NCBI GenBank assembly: GCA_016196125.1 | Contig: JACPYG010000006.1 | Location: 54,511 to 118,510 of the forward strand | DNA from: Candidatus Staskawiczbacteria bacterium | GTDB taxonomy: Bacteria; Patescibacteriota; Minisyncoccia; Minisyncoccales; Staskawiczbacteraceae | Reading direction: 5' to 3' | Length of the DNA: 64,000 nucleotides | Shown: positions 6,267-62,418 of the stretch, piece by piece | Numbering within the stretch: position 1 is the stretch's first letter | Layout of the letters: each line of letters opens with the position of its first letter | Translations under genes and position numbers: made by a program | Notes under the pieces: model-generated | Databases searched by the model: none | What the model was told of the DNA's origin: nothing | What the model saw: only the letters and a program-made list of their open reading frames with translations

Positions 6267-7319
6267 TTAATCTATTTTCCACCATTTATTTGGAAACTTT
6301 TCTTTCAAAATTTTATTGCCTTCACCGATTATATCTAAATGTAAATTTTTAAAATCGCTGTCTATCATGATTTTACACAAATCACTGCATGTTATTTTTG
6401 GCTGCCAACCAAGGCGTTCTTTTGCTTTGCTTGCATTCCCAATTAACGATTCTACTTCAGCTGGCCTAAAATATCGTTGGTCAATTTCCACATAATTTTT
6501 ATAATCACCCAGCCCCGCATAACTAAATGCCAATTCTAAAAATTCCCTAACCGAATGACTTTCTCCCGTAGCAACCACATAGTCATCTGGTTTTTCTTGA
6601 CAGAGCATCATGTGCATTGCTTCCACGTACTCTGGCGCAAAACCCCAATCTCTTTTGGCTTTTAAATTACCCAAATATAATTTTTTATCCAACCCAGCCC
6701 TTATTCTGGCAATACCCATGGTAATTTTCCTGGTAACAAATGTTTCTCCTCTTCGCGGAGATTCGTGATTGAAAAGCAGACCATTGCAGGCAAAAATTCC
6801 ATAAGCCTCGCGGTACAATCTGGTAATATCAAACGAAAATACTTTGGCCACCGCATACGGACTTCGCGGGTGAAAAAGCGATAATTCATTTTGCGGAGGA
6901 AGCGTTGAACCGAACATTTCGGAACTGGCAGCATTATAAAACTTTATATGGTTACCCGAATTTTTTATTGCCTCTAAAATTCTCAATGTGCCCAGCGCAT
7001 CGGTATTAGCCGTGTATTCGGGCATATCAAAACTGACCCTAACATGCGACTGGGCTCCCAAATGATAAATTTCATCGGGCTTAATTTGGTTGACTAATTT
7101 TTCAATGTTTCCGGTGTCAGTTAAATCTCCGTAGTGCAAAAAAAGCCTAGTGCCTCTGATGTGCGGATCTTGATACAGGTGGTCTATCCTTACGGTATTA
7201 AACGTGCTTGCTCTGCGGATAACGCCATGCACCTCATATTCGCGGGAAAGCAAAAACTCGGCAAGGTATGACCCATCCTGCCCGGTAATTCCAAAAATTA
7301 ACGCTTTTTTTGTATTCAT
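6267..7319 (-). CDS. gmd: GDP-mannose 4,6-dehydratase
   Basis: [21 protein letters not shown]...[11 protein letters not shown] is the canonical Gmd N-terminus. The start is trimmed to the ATG at 7319, which forms an ATGA overlap with the upstream stop. Confidence 0.9.
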
Positions 7320-45135: not shown

Positions 45136-45903
45136 CTAATCATTTATTGTCAATATTCCTTCTAATGCATCAGAATACTTGCCATCTGCGTATAAATCTT
45201 TAACTTCTTGCATTATTTTTTGCTGATCTTCTGTCAAAGTTGTATTTTCCAAGTCGTCAATCTCTCTTAGGACCAAAGGAGCTAATGCATCATTTAAATC
45301 TTTTGATTCTTTGGTATCCTCTAAGTCTACTCCTAATGTTTGTAACTCCTTTTTATTATCTTTTATTTTTTTAATCTGAAATGCAATATCTTTTATTGAT
45401 TTGTAATCTTTTTGCTCCATACCGCTAATGCCAACCAGATTTTTTGTCGCTTCTGAAATACTTGCCTGAAATTCTCTTATAGCCGGAGCTATATTCTGCA
45501 TTTTGTTATCTTTTACGACCTGCGTTAAATCGTCCAATCTTCTATTGGCTGTTTCAAAATTATTTTTTAGTTGATTTTCCTGTGATATGAAAGCTGTTTG
45601 CGACTGTTCTGTCAGCTTCTTTACCGAAAATAACGCATCTCCCGGCATTGTATACTGGGCAAAACCAAACATTCCAACCATTATGAATAAAAGGCTTGCA
45701 AAAGCATAAGCTAATTTTCTTTGATGGATCAATGCTGGCAAAAAGTCTAAGAAACCAAATGTCTGTTTTTTCTGCGCTTTTATTTGTCCCTTTACCGGTG
45801 ATTGAGCGATAAATATCTGATTTTTAACCAAAACCACCCAGTCTTTATTGGGCTTTATTTGCTGGAATTCCTTTAATTTATTAATTAGTTGTTTCTCATG
45901 CAT
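45136..45903 (-). CDS. membrane-anchored putative anti-sigma factor (single transmembrane helix, extracytoplasmic coiled-coil-like domain)
   Basis: Directly downstream of the ECF sigma gene. One hydrophobic helix (LAYAFASLLFIMVGMFGFAQY). The start is trimmed to the internal ATG at 45903 so the gene does not overlap the palindromic element. Confidence 0.5.
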   Translation of the reverse strand: MHEKQLINKLKEFQQIKPNKDWVVLVKNQIFIAQSPVKGQIKAQKKQTFGFLDFLPALIHQRKLAYAFASLLFIMVGMFGFAQYTMPGDALFSVKKLTEQSQTAFISQENQLKNNFETANRRLDDLTQVVKDNKMQNIAPAIREFQASISEATKNLVGISGMEQKDYKSIKDIAFQIKKIKDNKKELQTLGVDLEDTKESKDLNDALAPLVLREIDDLENTTLTEDQQKIMQEVKDLYADGKYSDALEGILTIND

Positions 45904-45950
45904 TGTACATCTACGACGCAAAAACTGGCTTTTTATTACAATTTTATCCA

Positions 45951-46025
45951 TATGGAAATAAGGATATTTTTCAACGCCCGCCAAACCCACGGCCAGTCCG
46001 AATTGAAAAATATCCTTATTTCCAC
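45951..46025. repeat. 75-nt palindromic element, copy A (21-bp arms, 28-nt loop CGCCCGCCAAACCCACGGCCAGTCCGAA); candidate structured RNA
   Basis: Arms ggaaataaggatatttttcaa / ttgaaaaatatccttatttcc. Copy B at 61049-61125 has compensatory arm substitutions. Confidence 0.6.
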
Positions 46026-46037
46026 GATAGCCGTGCT

Positions 46038-46559
46038 TTATGATTCTTGTATTTTTTTTGCTTCTATTTCTTTTTTTAGGGCTTTTAGTCCTCTATGAAG
46101 CATAACCCTTACCGTACCTTCGGGTTTACCCATAATTTCGGCTATTTCAGGGACCCTCATATCGTCTATGTAATGACAAATAATTATATCCTGGTAGTCT
46201 TGTTTTAAATTTTGAATGGCAAGCTTAACTTTTTGGAATTCAGAACTCAATATGGCCTTCTCTTCCAATCCCATACCTGAGTCAACTATTTGAGGCGCAA
46301 GAGAAGTTGAAATAACCTTTATTTTGGCTTTTTCCCTATAATGGTCAATCACTGTATTTCTGGCAATTTGGTATAAAAAGGCGCTTGGATTAAGAATTCC
46401 TGATCCTTGGCTCTGGAAGGCCTCCCAGCCCTTTAAAAACACCTTTGAAGTGATATCTTCGGATATTTCTTGTGAACTTACCTTAAAATAAACAAATCTA
46501 TATATTTTATCAATATATTGGTCGTAAATCTGACTGAATTTTTCTTGATAGTTATCCAT
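46038..46559 (-). CDS. RNA polymerase sigma-70 factor, ECF subfamily
   Basis: Region 2 (KIYRFVYFKV...SEDITSKVFLKGWE) and region 4 (VPEIAEIMGKPEGTVRVMLHRGLKALK) motifs; 173 aa. Confidence 0.85.
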   Translation of the reverse strand: MDNYQEKFSQIYDQYIDKIYRFVYFKVSSQEISEDITSKVFLKGWEAFQSQGSGILNPSAFLYQIARNTVIDHYREKAKIKVISTSLAPQIVDSGMGLEEKAILSSEFQKVKLAIQNLKQDYQDIIICHYIDDMRVPEIAEIMGKPEGTVRVMLHRGLKALKKEIEAKKIQES

Positions 46560-60039: not shown

Positions 60040-60242
60040 ATGTCAACCTATCTTTTTAATAATTCTTTCTGCTGTAATTTGAAATTTTAACTGCAAATTA
60101 TTAAAACCTCGTCGGCTTATATAATAATACAAACCTCCTCGCTTTTAATAATTTTCGTTTTAAAATTTCTGCATTTCGCCACAAAAGATTATTAAACGAT
60201 AGGTTGCTTATTTTAACCTATATTTCAAACTTTTCAAAACAC

Positions 60243-60288: not shown

Positions 60289-60792
60289 CTACTTACCTGA
60301 TAAAATTTCTTTTACAATCTTGCTTATTTCTGAACTGTCTGCCTTTCCTTTAACTTTTGGCATTAAATCTGCCATTACTTTACCCATGTCTTTCATTTCT
60401 TTTGCTCCCGTCTTATTTATAGATTCTTCGATTATTTTTTTTAATTCGACTTCTGATAATTGTTCCGGCAAATATTTCTGCAAAATTTCAATTTCTCTTT
60501 TTTCTTTGTCTGCTAATTCCGGACGATTGCCTTTTTCATATAGAACAATGGCGTCTTTCCTTTTTTTAATTTCAGATGATAAAGTATTAATAACTTCGTC
60601 GTTGGTTAATTCTGATTCTTTTATAAGATTTTCTTCTTTTAAATCTGGCTTATCTTTTGAAACCTTATACCCTTTTTCTTTTTCTTTAGATATTATAGCG
60701 GCCAGAACCATGCGCAAAGCATCAGAAGCGACATTATCGCCCGATTTCAAAAATTCTTTAGCATTATCTTGGATTTGTTGCTTTATTTCCAT
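60289..60792 (-). CDS. yqeY: GatB/YqeY domain-containing protein
   Basis: Located immediately downstream of rpsU as in Firmicutes; 167 aa, charged helical protein. Confidence 0.7.
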   Translation of the reverse strand: MEIKQQIQDNAKEFLKSGDNVASDALRMVLAAIISKEKEKGYKVSKDKPDLKEENLIKESELTNDEVINTLSSEIKKRKDAIVLYEKGNRPELADKEKREIEILQKYLPEQLSEVELKKIIEESINKTGAKEMKDMGKVMADLMPKVKGKADSSEISKIVKEILSGK

Positions 60793-61025
60793 GAATTAGC
60801 ACGACCTACTTTAGGTTTTTCTAATTTATCCAGACGTTTTTTTTCAGCCCTCATTTCAACTCGTCTTAGAGCTGATCTTTTTTTAGCTAAAGCTGATTTT
60901 GCTCTCTTTCTAAACTGTTTGCCTCTTACTTGGAGCAAAACTCCCGATTGGCGCACCACTTTTGTAAAACGATGGACCAAGCTTTGAGAGCTTTCTTTTT
61001 CTTTTCTTTTTACTTCTAATGCCAT
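60783..61025 (-). CDS. rpsU: 30S ribosomal protein S21
   Basis: 80 aa, very basic; VHRFTKVVRQSGVL...RGKQFRKRAK is S21-like. Confidence 0.8.
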   Translation of the reverse strand: MALEVKRKEKESSQSLVHRFTKVVRQSGVLLQVRGKQFRKRAKSALAKKRSALRRVEMRAEKKRLDKLEKPKVGRANSWK

Positions 61026-61048
61026 ATGAGTTTATTTTAAGTTGATTT

Positions 61049-61125
61049 TAAGCGGAAATAAGTATATTTTTCAACGTCCGCCAAACCCACGGCCAGCCCG
61101 AATTGAAAAATATACTTATTTCCGC
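61049..61125. repeat. palindromic element copy B (arms gcggaaataagtatatttttcaa / ttgaaaaatatacttatttccgc; loop CGTCCGCCAAACCCACGGCCAGCCCGAA) between hisS and rpsU
   Basis: Read directly. It is the same element as at 45951-46025, with compensatory G:C to T:A and T:A to C:G changes in the stem. Confidence 0.6.
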
Positions 61126-61146
61126 TTTATTTACAGTTTTTAATTA

Positions 61147-62418
61147 TTATTTAATTTTAGCTTTCATTTCTTTTACGACTTTATCAAGTTTTATTTCTTT
61201 TTGAGCGCCGGTTTCCATATCTCTTAAAGTGATAAAACCTTCCAATGCTTCTTTCTGGCCAAAGATTAAAACCCATCTTATTCCCATTTTGTCAGCTGTC
61301 CTCAACTGGGTTTTTAAAGAATCTTTTGAAAAAGATTCCGCCACCAGAATTTTCGCATCGCGAAATTCTTCAAACAGTTTTAATCCCTTTCTTTTTGCCA
61401 GTTGCCCCAACTGAGCTAAAAAGATTTTTGGCTCTGCTAATTTTACCGTTTTTACTTCTCTCGTTTTCAGTAAGCTTATTATTCGCTCAATTCCTCCGGC
61501 CACGCCGCAGGCGGGAGTATCTCTGCCTCCTAAAATTTTAGCCAAACTATCATATCTTCCCCCGCCCAGCAAAGATCCTTGAGCCTTGCCTTCTTCTGTG
61601 GTATTTTCTACTATTTCAAAAACCGTTTTTGTGTAATAATCCAGTCCTCTGACCAAATATGGATTTAAAGTATACGGCAGTTCTAACTCATCTAAAAATT
61701 CCAACACTTGCTTAAAATGACTATGGCAGTTTTCACAAAGATGGTCAATTATCTGTGGTGCGCCTGACTTCACTCTCTGGCACTTTTCTTCTTTGCAATC
61801 CAAAATCCTTAAAGGATTTTCTTTTAATCTTCTTTGGCAATCAGAGCATAAAGATGATTTTCTTGACCTGAAATAACCTGTCAAAATCTTTTTAAAATAA
61901 GGCCTGCATTCAGAGTCGCCAATGCTATTTACTTGAATGGTTATATTTTTAAAAGAAAGTTCTTTTAAAACATCGTAGCTCATTTGTATGATTTGGCTGT
62001 CAATTGATGGATTTTGCTCTCCTAATGCCTCAAAACCAAATTGATGAAATTGCCTAAAACGTCCCGCTTGCGGCCTTTCGTGGCGAAAAAATGGACCTAA
62101 ATACCAAAGCTTTACAGGTTGAGTAAGATTATGCATCCCATGTTCAATATAGCTCCTCACTACTGGAGCTGTCCCCTCTGGCCTTAAAGAAACCAAGTCT
62201 CCTCCCTTTGTTTTAAAAGTGTAAGTTTCTTTCTCCACAATATCGGTTGCCACCCCCACGCCCTTGGAAAAAACTTCGGCAAATTCCAAAATCGGAGTCT
62301 CTATTTTAGAAAATCCATAATAGTTGGTAATACTTTCAACCGCTTTTACAACCTTTTGAAAATAAGGCTGGTCTCCCGGCAGAATATCGTGCATTCCTGT
62401 TACGCTTTGAATTTTCAT
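61147..62418 (-). CDS. hisS: histidine--tRNA ligase
   Basis: Class II aaRS motifs (MHDILPGD..., RPEGTAPVVRSY, GGGRYD); 423 aa. Confidence 0.95.
   Translation of the reverse strand: MKIQSVTGMHDILPGDQPYFQKVVKAVESITNYYGFSKIETPILEFAEVFSKGVGVATDIVEKETYTFKTKGGDLVSLRPEGTAPVVRSYIEHGMHNLTQPVKLWYLGPFFRHERPQAGRFRQFHQFGFEALGEQNPSIDSQIIQMSYDVLKELSFKNITIQVNSIGDSECRPYFKKILTGYFRSRKSSLCSDCQRRLKENPLRILDCKEEKCQRVKSGAPQIIDHLCENCHSHFKQVLEFLDELELPYTLNPYLVRGLDYYTKTVFEIVENTTEEGKAQGSLLGGGRYDSLAKILGGRDTPACGVAGGIERIISLLKTREVKTVKLAEPKIFLAQLGQLAKRKGLKLFEEFRDAKILVAESFSKDSLKTQLRTADKMGIRWVLIFGQKEALEGFITLRDMETGAQKEIKLDKVVKEMKAKIK

Follow-up and report, generated by a model that had tools for sequence, protein, structure and literature searches.

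Classical MITEs are built of conserved terminal inverted repeats around a less conserved interior and are accompanied by target-site duplications. Correia/NEMIS of Neisseria, ERIC, RUP, and BOX are the MITEs considered here, and the long RNA helix of Correia elements is reported as an RNase III substrate. Hairpin-loop inversions with short inverted repeats are known from chloroplast noncoding DNA, where they affect single-copy hairpins. The proteobacterial REP/BIME/REPIN elements are mobilized by RAYT, a Y1 HUH transposase whose gene often has REPs on its flanks. REPs are described as imperfect palindromes of 20 to 40 bp with a G+C-rich stem and a conserved GTAG or CGTC at the stem foot (PMC3733652). 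Organelles also contain hairpin elements, such as the GC clusters of yeast mitochondria and those of sponge, Volvox, and fungal mitochondria (PMC2800124, PMC2670323, PMC7218506). A keyword literature search returned only general papers on MITEs, REPs, and organelle palindromes and none on an element of the kind reported below in CPR bacteria, and a search by the element's sequence string returned no paper.

We analyzed a window of 64,000 nucleotides, meaning the whole stretch of DNA at its full length, in which the first-pass annotation had described a palindromic element present twice. Both palindromes are real, although they lie a few bases away from where they had been placed: copy 1 spans 45953-46024, copy 2 spans 61050-61127, and both are perfect. 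The arms, given earlier as 21 to 23 bp, measured 22 bp (copy 1) and 25 bp (copy 2), and the G+C content, put at roughly 30% for the genome, was 34.8% in the window. The near-identical G+C-rich loop of 28 nt was found in both copies as claimed, flanked in each by A+T-rich arms. The two arm differences that had been called compensatory indeed preserve pairing: copy 1 has G:C and copy 2 has T:A in AAGGATAT/ATATCCTT versus AAGTATAT/ATATACTT, and the stem base is T:A in one copy versus C:G in the other. In copy 1, the gene-sense strand (minus) carries the G-rich complement of the core. The core pattern CGYCCGCCAAACCCACGGCCAGYCCGAA had exactly two matches in the window and none in 100 shuffles, even with 3 mismatches allowed, and a covariance-model search of the window revealed no additional copy, intact or decayed. 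Folding predicts highly stable hairpins for both copies (-33 and -38.8 kcal/mol, z about -9). Coordinates are collected in Table 1.

Table 1. Positions of the two palindromic copies, their parts, and their neighbors in the window
Feature	Position	Strand	Description
DUF5667 gene, downstream of copy 1, presumed anti-sigma	45136..45951	-	Pfam DUF5667
Copy 1, left arm	45953..45974	.	TGGAAATAAGGATATTTTTCAA; 22 nt, 100% complementary to 46003-46024
Copy 1, core, 28 nt, G+C-rich	45975..46002	+	+ strand CGCCCGCCAAACCCACGGCCAGTCCGAA; exact pattern match
Copy 1, right arm	46003..46024	.	TTGAAAAATATCCTTATTTCCA
Sigma-70-family gene, upstream of copy 1	46038..46559	-	Pfam Sigma70_r2, Sigma70_r4_2
80-aa basic protein, downstream of copy 2	60783..61025	-	S21-like by position only
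hisS/80-aa gene spacer, 121 nt	61026..61146	-	~118 nt (palindrome plus A+T-rich flanks) missing in six relatives
Copy 2, left arm	61050..61074	.	AAGCGGAAATAAGTATATTTTTCAA; 25 nt, 100% complementary to 61103-61127
Copy 2, core, 28 nt	61075..61102	+	+ strand CGTCCGCCAAACCCACGGCCAGCCCGAA
Copy 2, right arm	61103..61127	.	TTGAAAAATATACTTATTTCCGCTT
hisS, upstream of copy 2	61147..62418	-	Pfam tRNA-synt_His, HGTP_anticodon

The two copies had been assigned to minus-strand spacers of a sigma/anti-sigma and a hisS/rpsU operon. Pfam bore out hisS, the sigma-70 regions 2 and 4, and DUF5667, while the gene called rpsU had no family match: its 80-aa product matched no Pfam family at an E value of ≤0.001, gave a chance-level NCBIfam match (E = 0.11), and was not on record in an exact look-up. 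Size, basic composition, and a location ahead of yqeY are the only grounds for calling it S21. In all relatives this gene adjoins hisS and precedes yqeY, and in the window yqeY and then ybeY follow. The window HisS is 100% identical to that of a Candidatus Staskawiczbacteria MAG. The called start codon of the DUF5667 gene lies 1 nt from the arm of copy 1, and the gene call in locus L156 begins at the ATG equivalent to window position 45951. Because the G-rich core contains a GTG, ORF finders can carry the downstream frame into the element and arrive at the N-terminus VGLAGVEKY... (window 45951-45990; also L068 and L156), which could cause mis-annotation of the start codons of downstream genes. 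The window has an extreme gene-strand bias, with 56 of its 59 ORFs of at least 80 aa on the minus strand, and a tRNA/tmRNA search of the 64 kb found none.

A search of relatives for the loop motif, proposed in the first-pass annotation, yielded at least 92 distinct copies with the same core. A one-genome-per-species scan with a 19-nt piece of the core returned 60 loci, about 33 of which were chance matches inside G+C-rich genomes, without a hairpin; the other 27 shared the hairpin design and came exclusively from low-GC Patescibacteria MAGs, a single one of which had as many as a dozen. A metagenome scan added 95 stretches, and the 92 distinct copies were obtained by pooling both scans. The hosts are Patescibacteria (CPR) assemblies and unlabelled metagenome contigs only, and among the labelled hosts is Candidatus Staskawiczbacteria, to which the window itself belongs. 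In one MAG, CAYHHX01, the fetched loci hold 12 copies, and the 64-kb window holds 2. CAYHHX01 (L163 is its CAYHHX010000004.1) is labelled "Candidatus Saccharibacteria," which is probably wrong; its HisS is 92% identical to that of the Staskawiczbacteria window.

The family consensus is GCGGAAATAAGGATATTTTTCAA-CGYCCGCCAAACCCACGGCCAGCCCGAA-TTGAAAAATATCCTTATTTCCGC. A typical element is about 74 bp long, with 23-bp A+T-rich arms and a 28-bp G+C-rich core, and no flank consensus extends beyond position +/-23. Core position 3 is variable (46 C, 39 T, and 4 A among distinct copies), and two copies, window copy 1 and one other, have T at position 23. As most core positions were fixed by the search patterns, the invariance of the core is partly an ascertainment effect; each of the other positions left free by the patterns (1, 2, 17, and 19) differed in one copy at most. 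A trans-acting complement of the core was rejected: across 0.8 Mb of CPR DNA, no 11-mer from either core strand recurred elsewhere except in two degraded copies and as three matches due to chance. The fetched loci contained no rRNA genes.

Three further hairpins deserve separate mention. In L090:2654-2783 (minus strand), a self-folding, G+C-rich hairpin insert of 42 nt sits in the core between GGCC and AGCCCGAA, and could represent a nested insertion or hint at a larger parent element. It is the sole enlarged copy, and no long-insert copy was found by search patterns that required a contiguous core. L102:3912-4019 contains an unrelated hairpin of the same design, whose A+T-rich arms (GGCAAATAAATTTTTT / AAAAAAATCTGTTTGCC) enclose a roughly 50-nt loop rich in G+C; it may belong to a second family. 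A perfect 18-bp palindrome of different sequence, TTGGTGTAGCTTTTTCAC-TCGA-GTGAAAAAGCTACACCAA, lies at L077:9442-9495.

Arm covariation, for which the first-pass annotation had suggested a covariance model, proved strong: 24 of the 25 pairs have changed on both sides, and 92.5% of the arm cells are paired, versus 72% in shuffles and about 50% with the partner slid. The arms are perfect in 39 of 88 copies. Across 460 kb the covariance model found about 58 copies, only 3 of which had a degraded or altered core. The core is thus far better conserved than would be expected for junk, which weighs against a mobile element. The near-invariant core with its covarying arms and the rarity of decayed copies would instead suit a host-serving or domesticated genome-wide cis-element, kept by purifying selection rather than by mobility. 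In one version of this rival, the core, displayed at gene 3' ends on DNA that is either double-stranded or cruciform, would be bound by a conserved host protein and might serve termination, nucleoid organization, or replication; in another, the long helix would mark transcript 3' ends or processing sites.

To follow gain and loss of the element, we identified orthologous sites by comparing the flanking proteins of all copies. The junction between hisS and the 80-aa gene is only 1 to 24 nt long and element-free in all six relatives (L159 to L164; HisS 83 to 94% identical), including CAYHHX01, which is element-rich elsewhere. Because this junction is empty in six relatives, copy 2 is read as a lineage-specific insertion of about 118 nt. 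The 105 kb of syntenic DNA from these six relatives, which had not been selected for the motif, held no copy. A cis-element of general use to the host sits poorly with such absences, as four close relatives are copy-free in about 21 kb of syntenic DNA each, two further loci from close relatives are likewise copy-free, and many orthologous sites are empty, with spacers of 0 to 11 nt. The dnaK-dnaJ junction is filled in L043 and L104, while L106 and L113 have a 2-nt gap or a 1-nt overlap there. The rplQ-rplM junction (genes as read) is filled in L011 and measures 1 to 6 nt in L029, L141, and L090; in L152 it keeps an 11-nt piece of arm, better read as a deletion remnant. The idea that the outer stem arose by an inverted target duplication (L011 versus L152) was rejected, since GCGG belongs to the family consensus. 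On the other side, copies have been kept at orthologous sites whose flanking proteins are only 62 to 90% identical, so that their retention also fits selection for a host function.

Several observations concern the DNA next to the hisS site. An 86-nt imperfect palindrome occupies window positions 60082-60167 in the yqeY-ybeY spacer, which is variable among relatives (L159:12189-16421; L163:4776-5745; L161:12144-12428; L162:12058-12910). In L159 this spacer contains an MmeI-type methylase/restriction gene and an NYN-domain gene, and in L163 it contains a SocA_Panacea gene. Genes for an RVT_1 reverse transcriptase and a LAGLIDADG endonuclease occur in the syntenic regions of relatives (L161:19214-19927; L162:422-1030), both of which are copy-free loci.

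At several orthologous sites the core lies in opposite orientations (L075 versus L101; L043 versus L104). At the sigma site of copy 1, the sense strand carries the G-rich core in the window and L083 and the C-rich core in L111 and L032, and the upstream flank still aligns across the flip. Chloroplast hairpin-loop inversions are similar in that the loop differs in orientation between orthologous hairpins with the same stems, but they are a mutational phenomenon and not a repeat family with a conserved loop. At the same sigma site, an extra 8-nt partial arm start (TGGAAATG or TGTAAATG) lies just outside the palindrome in L083:~870-960 and L111:~6920-6945, which suggests slippage or rearrangement at the element edge. 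A double-stranded DNA site, as in the first version of the cis-element, would work either way round.

Opposite core orientations at orthologous sites with alignable flanks and similar arms also raise the question of a short invertible switch, in which the 28-bp core would be flipped between the inverted arms and alter the expression of flanking genes. The arm that follows the core begins with TTGAAA, and in copy 2 this -35-like hexamer has a TAAAAT 18 nt downstream. Invertible promoter switches combine both orientations within one population with an adjacent recombinase. However, four independent sequences of the window population have a single core orientation, and this A+T-rich DNA abounds in promoter-like matches (102, versus 56 expected). 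Known invertible promoters are far longer than a 28-bp segment, which also counts against a switch, as does a mismatch asymmetry tied to core orientation (see below), which argues against frequent flips of the core alone. We consider such a switch very unlikely. An outward promoter with its -35 TTGAAA in the arm was likewise rejected: there was one match, in copy 2, such matches are common, and downstream starts lie about 10 to 25 nt from the arm.

Signs of copying between sites were found in the distribution of variants. Core position 3 was the same in 81 of 86 pairs from within one genome or contig and different in 12 of 20 orthologous pairs, and in CAYHHX01 it was T in all 12 copies. Arms of the CAYHHX01 copies had an identity of 0.76 to one another, compared with 0.66 for orthologous pairs and 0.67 for all pairs taken together. 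Variants that track the genome rather than the site speak against a cis-element. The AAGTATAT/ATATACTT arms of copy 2 accompany a CGT core not only in the window but also in CAYHHX01 and another metagenome, and the "compensatory" difference between the window copies therefore reflects two subfamilies. Contigs L157 and L158, from two sequencing runs of the window population, end a few bases past the core of copy 1; breaks inside this copy are expected for a repeat.

The outer 4 to 8 bp of the arms differ between copies, and the center is the conserved part. No target-site duplications were detected, flank repeats being no commoner than in shuffled flank pairs (70 of 80 copies had none). The first-pass annotation had named random arm differences together with target-site duplications as the mark of a MITE. 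Since the arms instead covary strongly and duplications are lacking, the element is not a classical MITE either. It resembles MITEs in its inverted-repeat arms, in its size (that of MITEs being comparable or somewhat larger), and in being gene-adjoining, cotranscribed, and filled or empty at orthologous sites, and its helix, too, could be an RNase III substrate. It differs in that the termini vary around an invariant center with no duplication, in having no sequence similarity to them, and in that no parent insertion sequence was found with search patterns that required a contiguous core.

We then determined the placement of the copies relative to genes. Among 51 copies with both neighbors classified, none lay between divergent genes and 11 lay between convergent ones; the core on the mRNA strand of the codirectional copies was C-rich in 30 cases and G-rich in 10, the latter class including both window copies. 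Upstream genes stop at the arm or a few bases from it, while downstream ORFs mostly start about 10 to 25 nt beyond it. The recurrent neighbors, as read from the sequence, encode ribosomal proteins, elongation factors, DnaK, and a sigma factor. Some copies between convergent genes retain the A-tract and T-tract of bidirectional terminators. In one single orthologous set (L147, L075, and L101), L147 has a plain bidirectional terminator, AAACAAAAAAGCCAAGGC-ACG-CCTTGGCTTTTTTGTT, where L075 and L101 carry the element in the hairpin apex; the terminator tip of L075 reads AAACAAAAAAGC + ATATTTTTGCAA-core-TTGCAAAAATAT + GCTTTTTTGTTT, and L101 has the same arrangement except for GGC/GCC in the outer stem.

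The strict location at 3' ends, with bidirectional-terminator tracts at some convergent copies, is in favor of a host-serving cis-element. Against it, copies lie inside essential operons where a terminator would be harmful (ribosomal-protein genes, dnaK-dnaJ, sigma/anti-sigma), and the window copies, with their 28-nt loop, A+T-rich stem, and no T-tract, were not flagged by a terminator scan; an intrinsic terminator has a short G+C-rich stem and a loop of 3 to 8 nt, with a T-tract after it. On balance, we regard purifying selection for a host function as a possible but rather unlikely account of the family.

The first-pass annotation had also proposed a structured RNA, such as an attenuator or processing site. 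We considered this in the form of a cis-acting RNA specific to the two operons, its loop being read as RNA, and included a riboswitch-like element and a ribosomal-protein or sigma leader. Such a role would fit the location of both window copies in intercistronic spacers transcribed in the same sense, the stability of the predicted hairpins, and the arm covariation, but the element has no Rfam family. The whole window had no Rfam match at the gathering threshold, and E-value scans gave subthreshold chance matches only, the best for copy 1 being a generic miRNA hairpin model (26 bits; threshold, 79) and those for the enlarged L090 copy being sRNA, snoRNA, and miRNA models. Moreover, dozens of unrelated genes flank the element, its core lies either way at orthologous sites, including the sigma site, the mRNA carries now the C-rich and now the G-rich core, and at the hisS junction the spacer is missing altogether from six relatives.

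Since covariation cannot separate RNA from DNA in a DNA palindrome, mismatches in the arms were used instead. Of 71 arm mismatches, 49 are A·C on the strand with the C-rich core (equivalent to G·T on the G-rich strand), 10 are the reverse, and 12 are of other types. In the class with the C-rich core on the mRNA, the mRNA strand has 30 A·C and 3 G·U mismatches. Selection for an mRNA hairpin was rejected, because mismatches that are mostly A·C on the mRNA are the opposite of what it predicts, and selection for a weaker mRNA hairpin was rejected because the minority orientation lacks the mirror pattern. The asymmetry tracks the orientation of the core and not that of the genes, which suggests that it is a hairpin of the G-rich strand that matters, whether this takes the form of single-stranded DNA or of some other intermediate. 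When only distinct position-and-type events are counted, the asymmetry is 15 versus 7, and it may be a founder effect; as the copies share ancestry, this evidence is taken as a lead only. A sequence-specific structured RNA is left without support by the free orientation of the core, the A·C mismatches, and the spacerless hisS junctions. An operon-specific RNA is thus largely refuted by orientation and distribution, and we attach hardly any probability to it.

The other proposal of the first-pass annotation, a hairpin mobile element kept palindromic, is favored by the occurrence of many copies, their presence or absence at orthologous sites, their two orientations, and their genome- and subfamily-specific variants. 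We conclude, with a probability of roughly 0.6, that the window hairpins belong to a REP/MITE-like mobile palindromic repeat of a Patescibacteria clade related to Staskawiczbacteria. As is the case for REPs, mobility and a host function are compatible.

The mobile repeat resembles REPs in several respects: both are short, multicopy, extragenic palindromes at gene 3' ends, found between codirectional or convergent but not divergent genes, without target-site duplications, lineage specific and homogeneous within a genome, and in both a single-stranded hairpin is likely the active form. In contrast to REPs, the element is 72 to 78 bp long, its 22- to 25-bp arms are A+T-rich and variable, and its conserved part is the 28-nt loop; it has no conserved foot tetranucleotide, CGYC occurring only at the start of the loop. 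With neither target-site duplication nor flanking tetranucleotide, it fits neither the classical MITE nor the REP mechanism. It is also akin to the organelle GC clusters and hairpin elements, which are small G+C-rich hairpin modules spreading in A+T-rich intergenic DNA, variable between relatives and apparently selfish, although these have other sequences and are often G+C-rich throughout, whereas in the present element G+C richness is confined to the loop and the host genome is that of a free bacterium. REPs are defined in part by their size and foot tetranucleotide, and classical MITEs by conserved termini and target duplication; as the element departs from both, we file it under small dispersed palindromic repeats.

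We propose that this dispersed repeat, about 74 bp long, proliferates and turns over in the genomes of a Staskawiczbacteria-related clade. Its copies settle right after stop codons, in spacers between codirectional or convergent genes. It would propagate by being copied, either via a hairpin intermediate of single-stranded DNA or when one copy converts another. The core would be what a putative mobilizing or binding factor recognizes, while the arms would need only to pair, so that compensatory-looking changes could arise without selection on mRNA structure. The preponderance of G·T mismatches on the G-rich strand hints that one particular strand may be the active hairpin. Copy 2 would then be a recent insertion between hisS and the S21-like gene, and copy 1 an older resident of the sigma/DUF5667 spacer. 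A helix of 22 to 25 bp in RNA could still have an incidental, hypothetical effect on transcripts, and any such effect, as a 3'-end hairpin, an RNase III substrate, or a pause site, would be a by-product.

A more specific and tentative proposal, to which we give a rather low probability, is that the core is the recognition module of a hairpin-specific system of CPR bacteria, acting either in strand-specific (G-rich) transposition of single-stranded DNA or through a host factor at gene ends. The single-stranded version would leave no target duplication and would home to the tips of 3'-end or terminator hairpins. Neither a transposase nor another mobilizing gene was found among the neighbors of the copies, where only housekeeping genes recur. 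A phmmer search with two Y1 transposase probes, a weak test for a RAYT gene, detected nothing among 1,720 ORFs of at least 70 aa from fetched loci and the window, and viral contigs, phage records, and plasmid records contained no real match to the element. Should a core-recognition system of this kind exist, it would add a new REP-like pairing of element and enzyme and be the first reported from Patescibacteria.

Well-studied bacteria carry small palindromic repeats that influence transcription, mRNA decay, and genome rearrangement; for CPR bacteria, with their streamlined genomes of ~1 Mb, our literature search turned up no description of such a repeat. The element offers a practical marker of strain-level insertion polymorphism, and its copies break metagenome assemblies. 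It also calls for caution, as in a DNA repeat that is palindromic, compensatory changes in the stem are not sufficient to indicate a functional RNA. Compact as they are, CPR genomes tolerate a 74-bp element within essential operons and regain it time and again, and its invariant loop, free arms, and lack of target duplication point to a mode of recognition unlike that of REPs or MITEs.
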